Shown piece after piece: positions 7,129 to 60,840 of a DNA stretch of 64,000 nucleotides. Position numbers and translations under genes: made by a program. This stretch comes from Squalus acanthias (taxonomy: Eukaryota). Within the stretch, counting starts at the first letter, position 1. Each line of letters begins with the position of its first letter. A model generated the notes under the pieces. That model ran no database searches, was not told the DNA's origin, and saw only the letters and a program-made list of their open reading frames with translations. The DNA is taken from the NCBI GenBank assembly GCA_030390025.1, contig CM059431.1, forward strand, positions 157,420,001-157,484,000, written 5' to 3'.

Positions 7129-9400
7129 AGTTGCTTCTGTTTTATTCTTCCTGCCAAAATGGACAACTTCACATTTTCCCACATTATACTCCATTTGCCA
7201 TATCTTTGCCCACTCACTTAACCTATATATATCCCTTTAAGCCTCCTTGTGTCCTCTTCACAATTTACTTTCCTATCTATCCTTGTGTCATCAGCAAATT
7301 TAGCAACCATACCTTCGGTCCCTTCATCCAAGTCATTTATATAAATTGTAAAAAGTTGAGGCCCCAGCACTGATCCCTGTGGCACACCGCTCGTTACATT
7401 TTGCCAATCAGTAAATGACCCATTTATGCCTACTCTCTGTTTCCTGTTAGCTGGCCAATCTTCAATCCATGCCAAAATGTTACCCCCTACACCATGAAAT
7501 TTTATTTTCCACAATAACCTTTGATGTGGCACCTTATCAAATGCCTTCTGGAAATCTAAGTACAGTACATCCGCCGGTTCCCCTTTATCCACAGCACTTC
7601 CTCACTTCCTCAAAGAACTCCAATAAATTATTTAACCATGATTTCCCTTGCACAAAACCATGCTGACTCTGTCTGATTACTTTGGACCTTTCTAAGTGCC
7701 CTGTTATAACATCTTTAAAAATAGCTTTTTAAAATCTTCCCTATGACAAATGTTAAGCTAACTGGCCTGCAGTTTCCTGCTTTTTGTCTCCCTCCCTTTT
7801 TAAATAAAGGGGTTACATTCGCTATTTTCCAATCTAATGGAACCTTCCCCGAATCTCGGGAATTTTGGAAAATTAAAACCAACGCATCAAATATCTCACT
7901 AGCCACTTATTTTAAGACCCTAGGATGAAGTCCATCAGGACCCGGGGACTTGTCAGCCCGCAGCTCCAACAATTTGTTCAGTACCACTTGCGGTTATTAT
8001 TCTTATTTTCTTGACTTTCTCCCTCCCTTCCATTTCCTGATTTACAGCTATTTCTGGGATGTTACTTGTATCCTCTATTGTGAAGAACGATGAAAAAATA
8101 CCTGTTCAATTCAACTGCCATCTCCTTATGTCCCATTATTAATTCCCCAGACTCACTTTTTATTGGACCAATGCTGACTTTGTTAATTTGTCTTTTTAAA
8201 ATATCTGTTTAAACTCTTACTATCGGTTTTTATATTTCTAGCTAGCTTTCTCTCGTACTCTAATTTTTCTCTCCTTATTAATCTTTTAGTAATTATTTGC
8301 TGTTTTTTATATTCTGTCCAATCTTCTGACCTGCTACACATCTTTGCGCAATTATATGCGTTTGCTTTAATTTAATACAATCTTTAACTTTTTTAGTTAT
8401 CCACCCCTTGGGATTTTTCTTTCTTTTTGGAATGTATATATTCCGTGTATTTTGAAATATCCCCTTAAATGTGTGCCACTGCAACTCTATTGAACTATCC
8501 CTTAACATAATTTGCCAGTTCACTTTAGCTAGCTTTGATTTCATGCCCTCATAATTGCCCTTATTTAAGTTTAAATTACTAGTCTTGGACCCACTCATCT
8601 CTCTCTCAAACTGAACATAAAATACAATCATATTATGATCGCTGCTACCTAGGGGCGCCTTCACTTTGAGGTCATTAATTAATCCTATCTCGTTGCACAA
8701 TTCCAGGTCTAGTATAGCCTGCTCTCTGGTTTTCTCCAAAACGTGCTGTTGTAAGAAATTATCCTGAAAACAAGATCTCCTCATCTATGCTACCTTTGGC
8801 CATCTGATTTTTCCAGTCTATATGCAGTTTAAAATCCCCCATGATTATTGCCGTACCGTTCTGACAAGCTCCCATGACTTCGTCCTTTATACTCCATCCT
8901 ACCATGTGGTTACTGTTAGGGGGCCTGAACAACATTCCCACAATTGACGACTTGCATTTATAATTTCTCTTCATTACCCAAAGCGCTACTACATCCTCGT
9001 TTCCTGAACTTAGGTCATCCCTCTCTATTGTGCTAATACCATAATTAAATAACAGGGCCACCCCTCCACCTTTTCCCACCTTCCTGTCCTTCCTAAATGA
9101 CATGTACCCTTCAATATTCAGGTCCCAATCTATGTCATCCTGCAGCCATGTTTCTGTAATGGCTATCAGATCATATTTATTTATTTTTATTTGCGCTATC
9201 GATTCACCTGTTTTGTTTTGAATGCTACGTGCATTCAAAGGCAGAGACTTTAGTTTTGTTCTTTTATTATTTTTGTAACCTCTAGCGTTATCTGTTGATT
9301 TAATCTTACATTTGTACACCCTATCCCTTCCTGTCACGCTCTACTTATCATTTCTAATATTAATACCTTTCTCTATTGCCGTGTCTCTAATCTTTGAATT
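7129..9400 (-). mobile_element. CR1 ORF2 fragment (endonuclease + RT N-part)
   Basis: LNARSI, AITETW, GDF, SDHN endonuclease motifs (8293-9337); RT motifs at 7218-7592. Confidence 0.92.
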
Positions 9401-15531: not shown

Positions 15532-18397
15532 TCAGTATCCCGTCCCCGCCTTCTCTCCGTAACCCTTAACCCCTTTTGCCTGTAGAAATATATCTAATTC
15601 CCTCTTAAATATATTTAATGAGCTGGCGTACACTGCCCTCTGTGGCAATGAGTTCCACAGGTTCACCACCCTCTGAGTGAAGAAATTCCCCCTCATTTCT
15701 GTCCTAAATGGTTTAGCCCTTATCCTTAAATTATGTCCTCTAGTTCTGTTCTCACCCGCCAAGGGAAACATTCCTTCTGCATCTAGTCTGTCTAGACCTG
15801 TCAGAATTTTATACACTTCTATGAGGTCCCCTCTCAATCTTCTAAACTCCAGTGTGTACATCCCTAAACTACATAGTCTCTCCTCATAGGTCAATCCCGC
15901 CAATCCTGGTATCAGCCTGGTGAATCGCCGCTGCACCCCCTCCATGGCAAGAACATCTTTCCTCAGCTGAGGCGACCAAAACTGTACACAGTACTCGAGG
16001 TGTGGTCTCACCAGTGCCCTGTACAGCTGCAGCAAGGTATCCCTGTTCCTGTATTCCAACCCTTTTGCTATGAAGGCCAGCATACCGTTTGCCTTCTTGA
16101 CCGCCTGTTGCACCTGCATGCTCGCCTTCAGTGACTGGTGTACAAGAACACCCAGGTCTCTCTGTACTTCCCCCTCTCCCAATTTATTGCCATTTAAATA
16201 ATAATTTGCCCTCCCGTTCCTGCACCCAAGGTGGATAACTTCGCACTTGTCCACATTATAGTGCATCTGCTATTTATCCGCCCAATCACCCAGTCTGTCC
16301 AAATCGCTCTGGAGCTTCCTGGTCTCCTCCTCTGAGCCCACCCCCCCTCCGAGTTTAGTGTCGTCTGCAAATTTGGAAATGCTGCATCCGACTCCCTGAT
16401 CCAGGTCATTAATGTAAATTGTGAACAGCTGGGGACCCAGGACAGATCCCTGCGGTACCCCACTTGTTACTGCCTGCCATTCAGAAAATGAGCCGTTTAT
16501 TCCAACTCTCTGTTTTCTATCTGACAGCCAGTTCTCTATCCACGTCAATACTTTCCCCTTTATCCCATGAGCTTCAATTTTCCATGCTAATCTTTTATGT
16601 GGGACCTTGTCGAAGGCCTTTTGGAAGTCCAGGTACACCACATCTACTGGCTCTCCCCCATCTATTTTACCAGTTACTCCCTCAAAAAATTCCAATAGAT
16701 TAGTCAAGCACGATTTACCCTTTATAAATCCATGTTGACTCTGTCCTATCCTGTCCCCATTTGCTAAGTGCTCCGCTATTTCATCCTTAATGATGGACTC
16801 CAGCATTTTGCCCACAACTGATGTAAGGCTTACAGGTCTGTAATTACCTGCTTTTTCCCTACCCCCATTTTGAATAGTGGGGTAACGTTAGCTACCCTCC
16901 AATCCATGGGCACTGTTCCCGAGTCTAATGAAATCTGAAAAATCATACTTAGTGCATCCGCTATCTCTGAGGCCACCTCCTTCAGTACCCTAGGATGCAT
17001 GTTTTCAGGCCCTGGGGATTTGTCCGCCTTCAATCCCTTTAGCTTCCTTAACACCATATCCTTAGAGATATTGATTTGCGTCAGTTCCTCCTTTGCCAAT
17101 GTCCCTATTTTTCCCGATATCCCAGGGAGGTTTTTTGTGTCTTCCTTCGTAAAGACTGACCCAAAGTATGTATTTAGTTGGTCTGCCATTTCCTTATTAC
17201 CCGTTATATATTCCCCCATATCTGACTGCAATGGACCAACTTTGGTTTTCACCAGTCTTTTCCTCTTTATATACTTATAAAAGCTTTTGGAGTTAGTTTT
17301 TATATTTTCCGCCAGCTTGCTTTCGTAAGCTATTTTGCCCCTCTTGATTAAGCCCTTTGTCCTCCTTTGCTCTATCTTAAACTGTTCCCAATCTTCCGCT
17401 CTGGCGCTTTTTTGGGCTATTTTATACGCCCTATCTTTGGATTTATGCTGTCTCTAATTTCCCCTGTTATCCACGGTTGAGTCACCTTTTTAGATTTCCT
17501 TTTATGCCAGATTGGTATAAACAATTTTTGCAATTTTGTCATTCATTCTTTAAATGCTTGCCATTGTTTATCTACCTCCAGTCCTCCCAGGAACGTTGTC
17601 CAATCAGACCTACTCAGTTCCCGTCTAATGGCATCATAATTCCCCTTGTTTAAATTCAGGACCTTAGTCTCTGAGTCAATTTCTTCGCTCTCCATTTCGA
17701 GTGAGAAATCGATCATGTTATGATCGCTCTGACCCAAGGGTCCCCGTACAACAAGATTACTAATTAGTCCCTTCTCATTGCACAGTACCCAGTCCAATAT
17801 AGCCTGTTCCCGAGTTGGTTCCTCGACATATTGATCCAGATAACCATCCCTTAAACACTCAAGGAATTCCTCCTCCTCATTATTTTTACTGATAAGGCTA
17901 GTCCAATCTATATGTAAGTTAAAGTCACCTATGATGACAGCTGTGCTCTTATTGCACGCTTCTCTAATTTCCCTCGTGATGCCCTCCCCAACCTCTATTT
18001 TACTATTTGGAGGCCTATATACCACTCCTATTAATGTTTTTCGCCCCTCGCTATTTCTTAGCTCCACCCATATAGATTCTGTATTAACTGAGTTAATATC
18101 CTTCCTTTCAATTGCATTTATCCCCTCTTTTAGCAGCAATGCTACCCCTCCTCCCTTTCTTTTTTGTCGATCCTTCCTAAATACTGAATACCCCTGTATG
18201 TTAAGCTCCCAGCCCTGCTCACCCTGCAACCATGTTTCCGTAATCCCAATTAGATCATAATTATTAACCTCTATTTCCACAGCTAATTCTTCTACATTGT
18301 TCCTGATGCTTCTCGCATTAAGGTATAAAACCCTCAGGCTTTTTTTATGCTCACATTTTTTATGAATTAGTTTGGCCCTTTGTTTTTTGTTCCTCAC
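15532..18397 (-). pseudogene. CR1 ORF2 (APE endonuclease + RT) broken by a few stops/frameshifts
   Basis: Collinear ORF pieces 17543-18397, 16830-17252, 16270-16815, 15532-16266. Confidence 0.93.
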
Positions 18398-18469
18398 CCT
18401 TTTACCATTTATTTCTGTCTGCCTTTCACTTTCCTCTATTTCACTACATAGGTTTCTAGCCCCCTGCCA

Positions 18470-19334
18470 TACTAGTTTAAATGCTCCCGAACTGCTTTAT
18501 CAAAAATTACCCCGAGAACATCAGTTCCATCTTTGCACAGGTGTAGACCGTCCCTTTTGTATAGGTCACACCTACCACAAAACTGGTTCCAATGCCTCAA
18601 AAATTTAAAACCCTCTCTCTTACACCACTGCTCAAACCACGTATTTAGATAACTATCCTGTTCTCTGTACTCTTACTAGCACGTGGCACTGGTAGTAATC
18701 CAGAGATTACTACCTTCGAGGTCCTACTTTTTAGCTTGGCTCCTAACTCCCTAAATTCTACTTGTAGGACCTCTTCCCTTTTTTTAGCTACGTCGTTGGT
18801 ACCAACATGTATCACGACAACTGACTGTTCCCCCTCCCCCTCCAGAATGTTCTGCACCCGCACCGAGACATCCTTGACCCTTGCACCAGGGAGGCAACAT
18901 ACCATCCTGGAGTCTCGGTCGCGACCACAGAAACCCCTATCTATTCCCCTTACAATCGAATCCCCTATTACTATAGCCCTGCCACTCTTTTTCCCTCCCT
19001 TCTTTGCAACAGAGCCAGTCATGGTGCCATGAGCCTGGCTGCTGGTGCCTTCCCCCGATGAGTCATCCCCCCCGACAACAGCACCTAAGGCGGTGAACCT
19101 GTTGCTAAGGGAGAAAACCCCAGGGGATTTCTGCACTACCTTCCTGCCCTTGCTCTGCCTTTTGGTCACCCATGTACTATCTACGCTGGCCTTAACCTGC
19201 GGTGTGACCAACTCACTAAATGTGCTATCCACAACCCTCTCAGAATCGTGGATACTCCAAAGTGAGTCCATCCGCAGCTCAAGGGCCGTCATGCGGTCCC
19301 ACATGAGCTGCAGCTGGACACACTTCCCGCACAC
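18470..19334 (-). pseudogene. CR1 ORF1, SGNH/GDSL esterase type
   Basis: IVIGDSIVRG, CLPGARVKD, HVGTND, VVISGLLP motifs; frameshift near 18645. Confidence 0.92.
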
Positions 19335-19382
19335 ACCCTCCTTAAATGCCGTTCACCTGGGTGCTTCCCACCTGGTCCGCTT

Positions 19383-20215: not shown

Positions 20216-22018
20216 GGATATTAAACATGACACATAGCAACCAGGAAATATAAGGATCAGGAAACATAAGAAACGGAAAACAAAGGAAATAGGAAAAAAT
20301 AAGAAATAGTAAATATAGGAAACAGTACACATATTAAACAGTAAACATAGTAAACCGTAAAAAGAAGCAACAGGAAAAATTGTACAGACACAATAGCCTC
20401 CTTCCGTGGCGTAAATTTTCATGATTGTTTGATAAGAAACAGTAAAAATAGAAAATATGATACATAAGAAACAGTGAACATAGGACACAGTAAATATAGA
20501 GAAGAGGAACAAGGAAACATAGGAAATAGTAAAAAAACGAAATATTAAGTTGACAAAACTGAAAAAATAGTAAACAGGACATATGAAACTGAGGGAAAAG
20601 GAAACATAAGATAGAGTAAACATAGGAAACCTGGAACTTATGAATCAGGAAAAATATTATACAGGAAGCAGTAAATAGGAAACATGAAATATAAAACATA
20701 GGAAAATGTAAGCATAGGAAAAAAGAATCATAGGAAACACGAATCATAGGAAACAATAACTTAGGAAGCAGTAAATATCAGAATAACAAAACATAACAAA
20801 TAGTAACCATCGGAAACAGTAAATATAGGAAACAGGAAATATAGCATACATGAAACAAAGAAAATAGGGAAGTCGCACAACACCAGGTTATAGTCCAACA
20901 GTTTTATTTGAAATCACAAGCTTTCGGCGCTGCTGACAAAGGGGCAGCGCTCTGACAGCTTGTGATTTCAAATAAAACTGTTGGACTATAACCTGGTGTT
21001 GTGCGACTTCTCACTTTTGTCCACCACTGTCCAACACCGGCATCGCTGCATCAAAGAAAATAGGAAACATGGGAAAAGGAAACATAGGCAAAAATAAATA
21101 TAAAAAGATACGGGCGATCGTAAACATTAAAAATAAGAAACAGTGAAGATAGGAAACAGTAAACAGTAATCATAGGAAAGATTAAACATAGAAAAGACGA
21201 CACATTGGAAAGCTGAAAAATAGGAAAGAGTAAATATAGGAAACAGGAAATTGTAACTTTGGAAACATTAAACATATGGAACAGTAAACATAGGAAAGCG
21301 GAAATATAGGAAAGAGGAAATATATGGAACAGTAAACATATGGAACAGTTAATCTAGGAAATAGTAAAGATAGGAAACAGGAAAGAGGAAGCAGTAGAAA
21401 TAGTAAACATAGGAAAGGGAAATCATAAGAAACATAGAGAATAGTAAACATAGGAAACTGTAAACATGGGAAATAGCAAATATAGCAAATAGCAAAGATT
21501 AGACACAGGAAATGCTGTTAACAGTAAACATAAGGAACAGTCAACATAGGAAAGAGGGACCGTGGGAAACAGGAAACATAGGAACCACAGAAAAGGAAAC
21601 AATAAACATAGGATAGAGGAAACATAGGAAAGAGTAAACAGGAAATATGAAACATAGGAAAGGTGAAACATCGGAAAGAGTAAACATTGGAAAGAAAAAA
21701 CATAGAAAACAGTAAACACAAGAAACATGAAACAGGAAACATTGGAAACGGAAAACAATAAACATAGGATATATTACACATTGGAAAATGAAACTTAGGA
21801 CACATGAAATATAGTTAAAAGTAACATAAGAAACAGTAAACCAACGAAACAGGAAATATATGAAACAAGTAAATAGCGAACAGTAAACATAGAAAATAGT
21901 AAATATAGGAAACAATAAACATGGAAAACCGGTAACATAGGAAACAGTAAACAGAGTAAAATGGAAATATAAGAAACAGTAAACGAAGGAAACTCTCAAC
22001 ATAGAAATCAGTAAACGA
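20216..22018 (+). repeat. Purine-rich satellite array
   Basis: About 1.8 kb of degenerate AAAYATAGG (9-mer) plus AAACAGT/AAACAGG (7-mer) units. Confidence 0.92.
20869..21053 (+). mobile_element. Fold-back mini-insertion of a Penelope-like 3' end
   Basis: Inverted arms gaagtcgcacaacaccaggttatagtccaacag.../...ctgttggactataacctggtgttgtgcgacttc, 3' extension ending ggcatcgctgcatca; TSD caaagaaaatagg (20856-20868, 21052-21064). Confidence 0.85.
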
Positions 22019-36525: not shown

Positions 36526-38012
36526 GGCCCAAAATTTTCATTCGAAGGCTTCCTGCAGACGTATGCCTCCGACCTGTAAATAATCTAGGCATTTACCTGA
36601 GGACCCGGGAGGTATGGAGGCTTGCAATCCTGGGCCTCTCCGGGTAACCGCAGGAAGAGGCCCACGTATCCCAGGGGCGGAGAGGGTTCGCAAGATCCCC
36701 TGGGATAACGTGGTCCGGCCCAACTAATAAAAGAAGGAGATCTCCATTCATACTAATGGGAGTTCAGTATGTACGAATCCACATAAGTATGAATAGTGGT
36801 CAATTAAAAAATAATCGAGTACATGAAATAAATTTACAAAGATATTACATGCTTAAAATGAATTAAAATGCCATTCAATTAAATATTTTAATCACAAACT
36901 TAATATTTTGAAACAAAATTATGTTTTATCGTGTTTAAAAATAAACTTACCTTATTGAACAAGGCTTTTAATGTATAAATGAGTGATACAGATTTACTTT
37001 TCCATTTTTTAAAACTCTTATGCTGGTAAAAGCAGTCCTTATGCCTGCTTTTACCAGTCCTGTGAATTTCACGGGCATTCAGCAGGCGGAAGTTGCGCAA
37101 ATAGCGCAACTCTCCACCCGCAGAGGCCCTTTTCCTGTGGATGCGGATAATCTGTCAAGATAATTCTTGATGCGGAGATGCCAGTGTTGGACTTGGGTGG
37201 ACAAAAATGAGAAGTCGCACAACACCAGGTAATAGTCTAACAGTTTTTTTGAAAAATCACGTGCTTTCGGAGCTCCTTCTTCAGGTACAAGTACAGTGAG
37301 GGAATACAATTCGGCAGTATATATACACAGAGAGCAATTTGTCTGCAGAGATACAATCTGTTAGTAAGGCATTACATCAAAGACACATCAGAGTACAGCT
37401 AACACAATGAGGTGGGTCACAGGGGGTCCAACGTGTCAAATGTTGCCGTCTGCAGTTGAGCTTCGAACTTTTTTGTTTGTTTTTGTTTTGTTTGGTTTTT
37501 TTTTGTGTTACGCTACAGAACGTGACTCGACGTCGTTGTCTGTCTTTCCAGTTCACGCTACAGAACGTGACTCGACATCGTTGTCTGTCTTTCCAGTTTA
37601 AAAAAAAACACAAAAAAAACAACCAAAAAAAAAAGTTAAAAGCTCAACTGCAGACGGCAGCATGTGACCCACCTCATTGTGTTAGCTGTACTCTGATGTG
37701 TCTTTGATGATATGCCTTCCTAACAGATTGTATCTCTGCAGACAAATTGTTCTCTGTGTATATATGCTGCCAATTTGTATTCCCTCACTGTACTTGTACC
37801 TGAAGAAGGAGCAGCGCTCCGAAAGCTCCTAATTTTAAATAAAACTGTTGGACTATAACCTGGTGTTGTGCGACTTCTCAAGATAATTCTTGACAGATCG
37901 CAAGTACCGGATTTTAAAGGATGTGCTTCGCATGCCGAACCCCGGACCTTGCGTGGCCCAACGGACGTTTACACATCTCGTACGCACCCATAGGGGTCGC
38001 AAAATACCGTCC
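36526..38012. mobile_element. MITE related to 10291-11052, with a nested PLE fold-back
   Basis: Imperfect TIRs ggcccaaaattttc / gcaaaataccgtcc; TSD atg (36523-36525, 38013-38015) restores aaatatgaaaca; shares acttaccttatt and cctt/acgcctgcttt internal words with the first MITE. Confidence 0.72.
37171..37877 (-). mobile_element. Fold-back (about 290-bp arms) Penelope-like 3'-end insertion with a hammerhead motif on each strand
   Basis: Arms 37208-37505 and 37598-37880 are reverse complements; 16-bp TSD tcaagataattcttga (37155-37170, 37878-37893); CTGAAGA-a-ggagc-agc-gctcc-GAAAGCTC at 37800-37828. Confidence 0.88.
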
Positions 38013-50555: not shown

Positions 50556-50849
50556 GTGTGTTTGAGGCACAATCTCATTTAAGTGGATCCAGACAACCGA
50601 CAGCATTTAAGGCGCGAATCAGGCAGCAGGCAGAGGATATAGTTCCATCAGTCAGTGATGTTCTACACCCAGCTGTAATCCTGAGAGGGCGACCTGCATT
50701 CAACCACATCATCCAAACTCAGCAGCTAAAATAGAAAGGATTGAACAATTAGTCATTACATTTCCGTATCAAATACAATCTGATGTGGTTGTGATTCCCC
50801 GTCCCCCGTTTCATTTGTTGTATTCCCTTGTATTTCTCTATTTCTAAAT

Positions 50850-51200
50850 AAACAAAAATGAGAAGTCGCACAACACCAGGTTATAGTCCAACAGTTTTAT
50901 TTAAAATTACGAGCTTTCGGAGCTGTTGCCCCTTCGTCAGGTAAAGGTACAATGAGGGAATCTATTACACACTATATAAACACAGAAAGCAATTTGTCTG
51001 CAGAGATACAATCTTTTAGGGAGGCATTACATCAAAGACACATGAGTACAGCTAAGACAATGAGATGGGTCACAGGGGGTCCAACGTGTCAAATCCTGCC
51101 GTCTGCAGTTGAGCTTTTAACTTATTTTTTGGGGGGGTTTTTGGGGGGGGGGTTTGTGGTTTTTTTTAAACTGGAAAGACTGACAACGATGTCGAGTCAC
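50850..51200 (-). mobile_element. Single (non-inverted) copy of the PLE 3'-end family seen at 20869 and 37171
   Basis: Collinear with 37200-37505 and carries the head seen at 37570-37600. Confidence 0.86.
50907..50944 (-). ncRNA. Minimal type I hammerhead ribozyme motif (best-preserved copy of this family)
   Basis: ttac-CTGACGA-a-ggggc-aaca-gctcc-GAA-AGCT-C-gtaa: stem I ttac/gtaa, stem II, palindromic stem III, CUC cleavage triplet. Confidence 0.8.
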
Positions 51201-53029: not shown

Positions 53030-55680
53030 CACATAAGAAACAGGAGCAGGAATAGTCCACTTGGCCCCTCGAGCTTGCTCCGCCATTCAATAAGATCATG
53101 GGTGATCTTGGGCTCAAATCCACTTCCCTGCCCGCTCCCCATAACCCTTCACTCCCTTATCTTGCAAACATCTGTCTATCTCCAGCTTAAATGTATTGAA
53201 TGACCCAGCTGCCACAGATTTACGACCCTCTCAGAGAAGAAATTCCTCCACAACTCAGTTCTAAATGGGCGACCCTTTATTCTGGACTATGCCCCCGAGT
53301 TCTACTTTTCCCCACGAGGGGAAACATCTGCTCTACATATACATTTTTGAGCCCCCTCAGTGTCTTATATTTTCAATAAGATCACTTCTCATTCTTCTAA
53401 ATTACAATGAGTATGGGCAGACATTATTAACGACAGAATATTAACACTTTCTAGATTGCAGTGCTATGGAGAAATAGAAGGGCAGTAAGTCTAATTGGCT
53501 CGCTCTTACAAAGAGCCGGCATAGGCACGATGGAGCGAAAGGCCTTCTACGGTACTAAGATTATATCCATATATTTTCCATCAAGAACTAGGGAAAGGAA
53601 TAGGCCATTCATACACTCTATTTCATACCGCCAATGAATGACATCATGGCTGATCACTTTAATTTCTCTAAGTGCTCAGACACTGTTTTCCTATTTATAG
53701 TTTCCAATAATTTCGCGCTACTAATGTTAGACTTAAAGGCCTATAATTTCCTGGTTGCTCTCTCTCAACATTCTGAAATAATTGAGTCACATTTCTAATT
53801 TCCCAATTTAAAGAACATTTGCTGAATCAAATGTGCGTGGAAATATTGTGGCTAAAGCATTTGCAACTTCAACATCTAATAACTTTTAAATCTTTGGATA
53901 GAAACCAACAGTTCGCTGGAATTCATCAGACCTTAGTACCATTATATTTTCTAATACTGTTGTTCTGCTTGTAATAAATTTAGCGATTCCCAAAACCAGT
54001 TCCCATTAGTTTCTCTAAAATGTCCTCTTCTCTGAACACTGATGTGAAGTAATTATTCAACATGTCTAATATTGCCTTATTGTTATTTGTTATATTACCT
54101 ACATCTGTTTTGAAAGACACAGATTCCGCTAGACTACCCTTTTTCTTCCATTATAATTGTAAAAACGTTTTTGTGTTAATCTTGATATCTCCCGCAAACT
54201 TATTTTGATATTACTATACTCATTGGAGTTTAGAAGAATGAGAGGTCATCTCTTTGAAGGATATAAGATACTGAGGGGGCTCGACAAGGTAGATGCAGAG
54301 AAGATGTTTCCCTTCATGGGGAAACTAGAACTAAGGGCCGTAGTTTCAGAATAAGGGGACTCCATTTAAAACTGAAATGAGGAGAATTTTCTTCTCTCAG
54401 AGGGTCGGAAATCTGTGGTATTCTCTTCCCCAGAGAGCTGTGGAGGCTGTGTCATTGCATATATTTAAGGTGGAGATAGACAGATATTTGAACAATAAGG
54501 GAGTGATGGATTATGGGGAGCATGCAGGGAAATGGAGCTGAGCCCACGATCAGATCAGCCATGATCTCATTAAATGGCAGAGCAGGCTCGAGCGGCCAAA
54601 TAGCCTGCTCCTGCTCCTATTTCTTATGTTATTATATTCTTCCCTTTTAACAGCTCCTTTTTGTCTTAATTTGCTCTTCTTTATGCTGATCCCTGGAATT
54701 ACACTATTCTTTACACTTTTGCATGCTCTTTCCTTTAATTTTGCGTTATCTCGAAACTCTTTTGTCGATCATTAAGGGTTTTTTTTACAAGTAGAGCACT
54801 TGCGACTTCGGGGTATGTACTGGTCCTGCATTAAGCTGAATTTTGTTTTCAACATCTGCCACTGATTATCTGTAGCTTTTCCAGGTAATAGGTTGGGCCA
54901 TTTTGCTGTCGTCAGTCTCTGTCCATACCACGACCCGTACCACGACCTAGAATCTTAGTGACAGTGTTAATTTCTCCTTTTGAAAACTAACATTGAATTC
55001 TATCATATTATGATCACTGTTAGATGAATGTTCTCTTACTGTTAGATTATTAACTAAGACTGGCTGATTACTTATTACTAATTCTTGCAGATACTGCACT
55101 CTTGTTGTTTCTCGAGCACATTGCTCCAAAGAAACCTACCATTAATGCACTGGATAAATTCTAACTTGACCCACTCTGATCTTCTTAATCTTTCGGAAAA
55201 TTATATTCTCCAATTAAAACAGCTCTTATTTTGCAACAAACTTCTCTAATATTTGAAACTGCACATTCTACCACTCGATTGTTGCTATCAGGAGGTGTGT
55301 CGACAACTCCCATTATAGTTTTACGTCCTCTCTTATTGGTAATTGCTAAAGAAACAGTCAGCTGATTGATTTCTCCTACCTATATCCTCTCTTACTCATG
55401 TTGTAATAGTATATTAAATCATAAGGTTACCAATCCTCCTCTTCCAGTTTCCTATCCTTACTAAAGACATTATAACCAAGAATATTTAAATCCTAATCCT
55501 AAGCATCTTGCAGCGATCTCTCAGTAATGGCCAACAAATGACACACTGTAATCTGTATTTCAGCCTCAAATACACTCAATGTATTTCTTATACTCCAAGC
55601 GTTAGTATAAAGGACAGATTTTTGGCAAAAGAGACCCTAGCCTATCCTTCTTTCCTGAAGTATACCCAGGGTACCATCGA
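53030..55680. mobile_element. Patchwork of CR1 fragments (53030-53420 -, 53580-54210 -, 54210-54632 +, 54640-55680 -)
   Basis: CR1 3' hairpins and tails; SDHNMIEF endonuclease remnant at 54947-55129. Confidence 0.8.
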
Positions 55681-59479: not shown

Positions 59480-60840
59480 GGGATCGTGCCAGGTACTCCT
59501 GCCGTTTTACAGTGTGTCAGGATGCAACCAGGTGAGTATATGTTTTCAGAGTGTATCAGCATCCAACCAGGTGTCTATGGGGTTTCACAGTGTATCAGCA
59601 TCCGACCAGGTGTGTCTGGGGTTTCACAGTGCATCAGGTTCCTGACAGGTATCTATGGGGTTTCAGATAATCATGTTCCTGCCAGGTGGGTATGGAGTTT
59701 CACAGTGTATCAGGATCCTGCCAGGTGTGTATGATGATTCATAGCTTATCAGGAACCTTCCATTTGTGTTTAGGGTTTCAGAATGTAACGGGATTCTGCG
59801 AAATATATATGGGGTTTTAAAGTATTTCATGATCCTGCCATATGTTTAAGGTTTTTTACTCTATATGGCGATCCTGCCAGGTGTGTATGGGGTCTCAGAG
59901 TGTATCAGGATCCTGCCAGGTGTGGATCGTGTTTCACAGTTTATCGGAATCCTGCCTTGCGTGCACGGGTTTCACAGTGTATTGGGATCCTGCCAGGTGT
60001 GTATGGGATTTCACAGTGCATCACGATCCTTTTAAGTCTGTATGGGATTTCACAGTCTTTCAGAATCCTGCCTGGTTTGTATGGGGTTTCACAGTACATC
60101 AGCATCCTGCCAAGTGTGCAAAGGTTTCACAGTGTATCAGCATTCTGCCAGGTGTGTATGGGGTTCCAGATTGTATCAGAATTCTGCCAGGTGTGTACGG
60201 GGTTTTACAGTGTATCAGGGTTCTGGCAGGTATGTATGGGGTTTCACAGTGTATCAGGATCCTGCCAGGTGTGTGTGTGGTTCCGAAGTGTATCAGGAAC
60301 CTGCCTGGTGTGTATGGGTATTTCGCAGTGTATCAGGATCCTGCAAGGTGTGTGTGGGTTTTCACAGTGTATCAGGATTCTGCCAGGTGTGTATGGGGTT
60401 TCACAGTGTATCAGGATCCTGCCTGGTGTTTATGGGGATCCCCAGTGTATCAGGATCCTGCCAGATGTGTATGGAGTTTCACAGTGTATCAGGATCCTGC
60501 CAGGTGTGTATGGGATTTCGGAGTGTATCAGGATCCTGCCAGGTGTGTGTGGGGTTTCACAGTGTATCAGGAACCTGCCAGGTGTGTGTGGGGTTTCACA
60601 GTGCATCAGGATCCTGCCAGGTGTGAATGGAGTTTCACAGTATATCAGGAACCGACAAGTTATGTATGGTGTTTCACTGTATATCGGGGCACTGCCAGGT
60701 GTGCACGGGTTCCAAAAATTAGCAGGTATCTGCAAGAAATGGGGTTTTAGTTTGTATTAGGCTTCTGCCAGTTGTGTATGAAGTTTCCCATTCTATCGAA
60801 TACTGCCAGGTATGTATGGGGTCTCACAGTTTATGCGAAC
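59480..60840 (+). repeat. 39-bp minisatellite (ttcacagtgtatcaggatcctgccaggtgtgtatggggt), about 35 copies
   Basis: Clear 39-bp period; 13-aa periodicity in the ORF track. Confidence 0.96.

Follow-up and report, generated by a model that had tools for sequence, protein, structure and literature searches.

An old PLE insertion with two 3′ ends head to head is the very probable origin of a fold-back locus in Squalus acanthias

The closest described systems are summarised here from parts of the papers cited. Penelope-like elements (PLEs) generally have an adjacent inverted 5′-truncated copy and, at one end, a tail of 30-40 bp (PMC8557442, PMC8969392), and in rotifers the pLTRs are inverted, the tail is optional and found on one of them, and the target-site duplication (TSD) measures 9-10 bp (PMC3846280). 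De novo PLE insertions are typically very short via 5′ truncation (PMC9977147). In Schistosoma, pairs of minimal hammerheads lie 100-700 bp apart on opposite strands (PMC4209133), and published minimal hammerheads cleave weakly, as dimers or with protein (PMC4209133, PMC11167929). In vitro, the purified protein, a predicted dimer, of PAc, the Poseidon-type PLE of Anolis carolinensis, nicks both strands and extends them, starting at two sites separated by the tail (PMC11167929). Animal non-LTR retrozymes are composed of head-to-tail units with an intact hammerhead in consecutive units (10.64898/2026.07.22.740005), and L1 twin priming provides a further comparison (PMC2837659, PMC2912911).

The layout of the locus described below is already known, having been described for PLEs since at least 2013, and the locus is one of very many decayed PLE ends in the genome. 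The origin of the inverted pLTRs and one-sided tails is unsettled in the class as a whole. The value of this locus is mechanistic, in that two arms, neither of which contains the other, on a symmetric target separate priming from both strands from simple snap-back.

The window is the whole stretch of 64,000 nucleotides that was analysed (GenBank assembly GCA_030390025.1, contig CM059431.1, positions 157,420,001 to 157,484,000), and all positions are numbered within it. Locus 1 occupies 37155-37893 and is very probably one old 5′-truncated insertion of an endonuclease-bearing (EN+) PLE, with two 3′ ends lying head to head. Its features are as follows.

36926 to 37170, no strand assigned: host of the insertion, a copy of an unrelated high-copy repeat (high depth).
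37155 to 37170, + strand: left TSD copy, of which the last 3 nt (TGA) also match the end of the element tail.
37168 to 37207, − strand: PLE tail and main 3′ end of the family, an extension of 37-40 nt that the right arm lacks.
37171 to 37509, − strand: long arm, 5′-truncated at 37509; element 3′ end with the A-rich part of the 3′ UTR, the pLTR and the tail.
37260 to 37284, − strand: degenerate minimal hammerhead of the left arm, lacking 5 nt of stem/loop II and with A in place of the U of the cleavage triplet.
37510 to 37880, + strand: short arm, with the ORF end, 3′ UTR and a pLTR without tail (inverted pLTR copy).
37510 to 37598, + strand: 45-bp tandem duplication at the 5′-truncated end of the short arm.
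37553 to 37570, + strand: last five codons and stop of the PLE ORF (SRYRT*), from translation and the in-frame continuation in other copies.
37800 to 37828, + strand: minimal type I hammerhead of the right arm, with an intact core, a 5-bp stem II, palindromic AGCU and a stem I of 0 bp.
37878 to 37893, + strand: right TSD copy, identical to the left copy.

A sequence-only reading of the window had claimed two inverted arms of about 290 bp, and these were seen at 37208-37509 and 37600-37880 as inverted repeats (150 nt at 95%, 48 nt at 92% and 69 nt at 84%). The arms differ at 17/241 aligned bases when the A-rich stretch is excluded, with gaps of 19 nt in the right arm and 5 nt in the left arm, and divergence is alike in their inner and outer parts (Fisher P 0.42). 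The extension described for one arm only is indeed confined to the left arm (37168/37171-37207). Likewise, the central direct duplication is present at 37510-37598, its 45-bp copies differing by 1 mismatch, and it would reflect a backward template jump or slippage at the time of repair. Neither arm contains the other, the tail being found only in the left arm and the ORF end, in right-arm orientation, only in the right arm.

The unit is bounded by a 16-bp direct repeat, the identical copies of which occur window-wide only at 37155-37170 and 37878-37893. In a chance control, an anchored repeat of at least 16 at the same spacing was obtained in 3/5000 random pairs. The repeat previously taken as a 16-bp TSD is real, but 16 bp is an upper limit. 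The inner 3 bases of each copy also match the element, the TCA that ends the short arm overlapping the TSD on the right, so the TSD is 10-16 bp.

Contigs from four public runs (X1, X3, X6 and X9) were aligned to 36900-37670. In contigs from other copies of the host repeat, the alignment reaches 37170 and a further 4-5 letters follow, and because these copies align through 37170 the repeated TSD bases derive from the target. When 37150-37170 is joined to 37894-37898, the empty site folds as a hairpin (11-bp perfect stem, 4-nt loop), the dyad of which is the centre of the TSD. The 5 bases outside the TSD on each side complete the stem, in support of a single insertion into a site that was once continuous. 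The host repeat (36926-37170 and 37894-38010) is unclassified, includes several internal palindromes (37023-37057, 37150-37170) and is present at depth in all four runs.

At 37553, other copies of the family diverge from the window sequence and continue upstream in frame. Hand translation of the 30-letter consensuses of the loose ends upstream of this position gave DGLNRDLGFM in X3 (35 contigs, agreement 0.97), NPINRDIGFM in X1 (17 contigs, agreement 0.78) and SHLNRDLGFM in X6 (9 contigs, agreement 0.99). These consensuses are in frame with SRYRT*, giving ...LNRD(L/I)GFM-SRYRT*, and the X3 and X6 versions of LNRDLGFM are separated by three synonymous changes. The loose ends have a median length of 11-12 nt, so that most contigs cover only GFM and the LNRD part depends on the few longer ones. 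For X9, no upstream continuation was found among the rows listed, with 648 further rows. The visible coding part is the C-terminal 15 codons, (G)LNRDLGFMSRYRT*, and matches the last motif of the PLE endonuclease. The last conserved block in a published alignment of that endonuclease reads GLNR, GLNE or SLNR (PMC8557442 supplement), with GLNR in Neptune1_Nv and SLNR in PoseidonFr, and the motif does not separate the Neptune and Poseidon clades; in that supplement the strings LNRD and DLGF are absent and GLNR occurs once. The suggestion that the centre could encode the end of a PLE ORF is thus borne out by 61 contigs (35+17+9) that extend in frame into the C-terminal motif of the endonuclease, and the assignment of the centre of locus 1 as a putative ORF end is, at the level of sequence, well supported.

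The window has 57 ORFs of at least 120 aa, and the Pfam scan covered 43 of them, the other 14 lying in or adjoining tandem repeats. Matches were found in 10/43 (7 RVT_1, 2 exo/endo/phosphatase and 1 GDSL-like), and 0 of the 43 matched GIY-YIG. The failure to recover an autonomous partner counts against the identification as an EN+ PLE; pattern scans of collections of metagenome, genome and viral contigs also came back empty, which is uninformative as these are not eukaryotic assemblies.

Two further loci in the window belong to the same family.

20856 to 21064, + strand: second insertion of the family (locus 2), laid out in the same way, bounded by a 13-bp repeat of its own and with a mutated hammerhead core.
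20869 to 20936, − strand: tail-less arm of locus 2, from the arm alignment.
20934 to 21053, + strand: tail arm of locus 2, the first base of which is also that of the hammerhead core.
50852 to 51200, − strand: third copy (copy 3), beginning at the ORF stop codon and ending 7-9 nt inside the tail; no inversion is visible.

The recurrence of the same architecture near 20869 was correctly recognised in the sequence-only reading: locus 2 has inverted arms, a tail on one of them and its own repeat. The repeat copies lie at 20856-20868 and 21052-21064, the TSD is 11-13 bp, and among satellite-only pairs used as a control 0/5000 had a repeat of 13 or more and 10/5000 a repeat of 12. The arms are identical over the outer 52 nt and overlap by 3 nt (CTG) at the junction, and the unique centre runs in the orientation of the tail arm. 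Locus 2 is hosted by a degenerate 16-bp satellite (AGGAAACAGTAAACAT-like), which forms large blocks in 4159-47741, always on the same strand.

Copy 3 (50852-51200) had been missed in the earlier reading and begins at the equivalent of 37567. A TSD was searched for at this copy and none was found. At 50825-50856, copy 3 ends in the tail against a sequence that ends in AATAAA on the + strand; a different retroelement may have inserted into the tail and left its 3′ end as this abutting sequence, and the adjoining fragment is presumably LINE-like. Two of the three family loci in the window are inverted. The rest of the window is made up of LINE fragments and satellites. A broken LINE at 15532-19352 (− strand) retains pieces of a GDSL/esterase-like ORF1, endonuclease and RT in order, and a 39-bp tandem array of 34 copies at 59504-60834 has frames that are open for 305 and 323 codons.

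The motif CTGAAGA...GAAA reported in each arm, with both copies mutated, was found at 37800-37824 (+) and 37265-37284 (−). Stem I is lost in the right arm, and stem/loop II and the cleavage triplet are affected in the left. The loose pattern CTGANGA...GAAA alone is at chance level in the 64-kb window (8 seen vs 5.4 expected). A strict minimal-hammerhead pattern, which was written after these motifs were seen, matches at 37800 and 50940 and gave 0 matches in 200 resampled 64-kb sequences. According to the descriptor, the only complete minimal type I hammerhead in the window is the one of copy 3 at 50940, consisting of a 4-bp stem I, the core, one unpaired base, a 5-bp stem II and palindromic AGCU; the descriptor is broken at 37284 and 20934. 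Loose matches at 7269, 24196, 50148 and 61999 were rejected as hammerheads after failing the stem II test, and that at 54915 was rejected for want of a stem I.

Judged from their sequences, the left-arm hammerhead (37260-37284) is predicted to be inactive and the right-arm hammerhead (37800-37828) is probably inactive, and both look like dead passengers. The two lie on opposite strands and therefore would not form a dimer in cis. The covariance-model scan suggested for these motifs returned no Rfam hammerhead match, neither window-wide at E up to 1 nor in two 101-nt stretches at E up to 10, and the only Rfam matches were chance microRNA-precursor matches below gathering scores. This blank lowers the case for filing the motifs under Rfam and not the resemblance itself, because these are minimal forms without stem III. 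Read-through of the locus was expected to give a long hairpin RNA, and the model agrees, predicting a duplex of ∼280 bp (−448.5 kcal/mol) in which 22/29 and 23/24 core bases would be buried. If transcribed, such a duplex could feed small-RNA silencing.

At 37168, loose ends running into diverse flanks begin in 37 X3 contigs and 13 X9 contigs (agreement 0.42 and 0.44, respectively), and a second cluster of loose ends, with unrelated flanks, lies at 37198 (19 contigs in X3). From their positions, these clusters appear to be the end of the tail and another end 30 nt within it; alternatively, another element could have the cluster at 37198 as its fixed target. In the window, the short ends correspond to 37208-37211 at loci 1 and 2 and to ∼37201 at copy 3. 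Two ends separated by the tail match the signature of a PLE tail.

A recurrent joint from 37237 to 37168, with one base between, has a depth of 333 in X3 and 57.3 in X1, several times single-copy. It represents the head-to-tail repetition of a ∼70-bp unit composed of the pLTR end and the tail, without the hammerhead. In the sense RNA of 37168-37262 (−) and 20975-21054 (+), the tail is predicted to be able to pair with the pLTR end (UGUUGGAC with GUCCAACA), and the resulting stem-loop would place the short ends in or beside its terminal loop; compared with shuffles, the predicted stem-loop has a z of −1.8 for locus 2 and that of locus 1 is not above them. The three 5′ truncation points, 37510 and 37553 in one event and 51200 in copy 3, lie no more than ∼14 nt apart at the ORF stop codon, and their clustering possibly marks a reverse-transcriptase stall or the template's 5′ end. 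In this region TCACG...CGTGA can form a short hairpin, which is not above shuffles.

The unit of locus 1 encodes nothing, and its ribozymes are decayed passengers. Four of the five testable features of a truncated EN+ PLE insertion are found at the element. A 30-40-nt tail at one end is present at loci 1 and 2, as is a short TSD (10-16 bp and 11-13 bp, respectively), an inverted or tandem 5′-truncated copy (pLTR) is present, and a minimal hammerhead lies in the pLTR, complete at 50940 and with only the core at 37800. Of the fifth, an ORF with telomerase-like RT and GIY-YIG endonuclease, only the C-terminal 15 codons are visible. Two origins had been envisaged in the sequence-only reading. That of a 5′-truncated PLE insertion is supported by the in-frame coding continuation upstream in other copies, and that of a retrozyme-like non-coding family did not hold up. 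Head-to-tail units with intact hammerheads, by which non-LTR retrozymes are recognised, form no array in the window, and the breakpoints differ among the window loci, with the junction at 37509/37510 in locus 1, at the hammerhead core in locus 2, and no visible inverted partner in copy 3. A non-LTR retrozyme, expected to have no coding sequence and fixed ends, was rejected on the presence of an ORF end and on unit ends that differ among the three loci. A fold-back DNA transposon or MITE was also rejected, the left end carrying 37-40 nt that are absent from the right end.

The common position at the stop codon of the starts of the short arm (37553, 37510) and of copy 3 (37567 equivalent), all within 14 nt, would suit a distinct non-coding, retrozyme-like fold-back family with fixed ends that is mobilised in trans by PLE protein, and non-autonomous PLE derivatives are known in vertebrates. 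However, such a family is highly improbable given the 61 contigs from three runs that continue into upstream coding sequence, the different breakpoint of locus 2 and its unit only ∼1/4 as long, and the lack of tandem hammerhead units, both hammerheads of locus 1 being damaged and on opposite strands. The sole contig across the junction of locus 1, from X3, has a depth of 24.9 compared with 24.6 in the unique flank and a summed family depth of ∼434,000 at 37550-37575. The contig demonstrates that X3 contains the junction; it is a weak indication that the junction is single-copy, because reads are cut at the T-rich stretch and the contig covers 16 letters on one side vs a bridging standard of 31. 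Reads were cut at repeats in 37468-37510, and the zero depth at 37472-37497 (X1, X9 and X6) and beyond 37601 (all runs) is uninformative. Among the 15 joints listed (of 24), none had a strand change at the locus 1 junction. The claim that the unit arose by a single insertion agrees with the presence of one TSD pair and the lack of target bases between the arms. These same two observations, together with the close relationship of the arms, make two independent insertions at one hot spot in opposite orientations hardly credible, even though a symmetric target shows the same site to both orientations and, at site 37831 (3′ of the hammerhead), the right arm groups with copy 3 and the left with locus 2. 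When both arms were compared with copy 3, 16 of the 33 variable substitution sites join the arms, 10 join the right arm with copy 3, 6 join the left arm with copy 3, and all differ at 1. In addition, both arms carry at 37403 a base at odds with 99.98% of the X3 family depth, where contigs drop rare variants. Since the arms are sisters at 16/33 sites and share this near-private base, they come from one source. An origin of the arms from different subfamilies was considered and dropped, 37831 being the only site that is discordant and robust to gap placement.

For one insertion of an EN+ PLE, the route with about an even chance of being correct at locus 1 is priming from both nicked strands, and each of its steps is a reconstruction. 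The PLE protein would nick both strands of the hairpin-forming target at equivalent positions, and each 3′ end (TGA) would pair with UCA in the PLE RNA and prime its own cDNA, one at the end of the tail and the other at the tail-less start 40 nt upstream. One cDNA would extend 339 nt, and the other would reach the ORF end, jump back 45 nt and stall again at nearly the same place. Host repair would join the truncated cDNA ends and fill in, and neutral decay would leave the arms ∼7% different. At locus 1 both primer ends read ...TCTTGA and both element ends ...TCA, a 3-nt primer-template overlap, and the nicks so placed would be symmetric on the target DNA hairpin; the two overlaps are not independent because the target is symmetric. 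If PAc is taken as a guide, its starts without primer-template homology and its ATT preference in vitro would speak against this route (PMC11167929). At locus 2 the ends overlap the target by only 2 and 0 bases, which also counts against it and fits snap-back. The snap-back products of a 5′-truncated insertion proposed in the sequence-only reading fail at locus 1 in their simple form, since the left arm alone has the tail and the right arm alone the ORF end. A tail-primed fold-back would leave the unique centre in left-arm orientation, and one primed from the short end cannot make the tail. What is left of the proposal, a workable but doubtful route, is that a tail-primed cDNA ran past the ORF end and copied itself, and that the centre was later rearranged with the loss of ∼50 nt from the long arm, duplication of 45 bp and stabilisation of the near-perfect palindrome. 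Asymmetric central deletion of long palindromes is established. The near-private base shared at 37403 is expected if one arm was copied from the other, and the CTG overlap, the orientation of the centre and the identical outer 52 nt of locus 2 point the same way. However, a second event is needed at locus 1, where the ORF end is missing from the tail arm, and the arms (17/241) look slightly more diverged than the TSD and duplication (1/61), a difference that is not significant (binomial P 0.065, Fisher P 0.14). Arms more diverged than the TSD would be permitted if the reverse transcriptase had copied an already inverted-repeat transcript or switched to an antisense template, and self-priming on an antisense template has been proposed for rotifer PLEs (PMC3846280). 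This is nevertheless unlikely here, no sister locus with the same junction having been seen, a point for which the depth of the junction contig (24.9) relative to the flank (24.6) is weak evidence.

A tentative mechanism for priming from both nicked strands is double-ended target-primed reverse transcription: a PLE dimer would cut the hairpin symmetrically, each nicked strand would start cDNA through 3-nt pairing at one of the two sites that delimit the tail, and possibly two RNA molecules would serve as templates. If true, it would explain the class-wide combination of an inverted copy and a one-sided tail, and primer-template pairing would matter in vivo. In the openly accessible literature, no paper was found that explains inverted pLTRs by double-ended priming. 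The route of PLE inversion is not to be decided from one or two loci.

Locus 1 resembles the complex insertions of EN+ PLEs in its 5′ truncation, inverted copy, one-sided tail of 30-40 nt and short TSD (PMC3846280, PMC8557442, PMC8969392), and the ORF of the family ends in a GLN-type endonuclease motif as in EN+ PLEs (PMC8557442). Unlike the EN+ PLE insertions described in the passages cited, it keeps only five ORF codons and has a 45-bp duplication at the junction, and its TSD of 10-16 bp, which may exceed the 8-10 bp of the rotifer examples, is centred on a DNA hairpin. The hammerheads of the family share with the minimal hammerheads of metazoan PLEs a short stem I, the CUGANGA core, a single unpaired base ahead of stem II and, where stem III would be, palindromic AGCU (PMC4209133). 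In contrast to those described there, both motifs of locus 1 are damaged and only that at 50940 keeps all parts.

The family of the window is like PAc in having two 3′ ends separated by the tail (PMC11167929). However, PAc as characterised in that work starts without target homology and prefers ATT, whereas both ends of locus 1 show a 3-nt overlap. Animal non-LTR retrozymes share with locus 1 a type I hammerhead, a length of a few hundred bp and kinship to PLE pLTRs (10.64898/2026.07.22.740005), but as far as that source goes they differ from it, locus 1 being head-to-head, with damaged hammerheads and an ORF end included.

The product at locus 1 is like that of L1 twin priming, an inverted truncated insertion within a TSD, and both nicked strands are proposed here to prime, as in that process. 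In L1 twin priming the second primer initiates at an internal position of the RNA and neither part is a repeat of the other, whereas both parts of locus 1 copy the same 3′ end.
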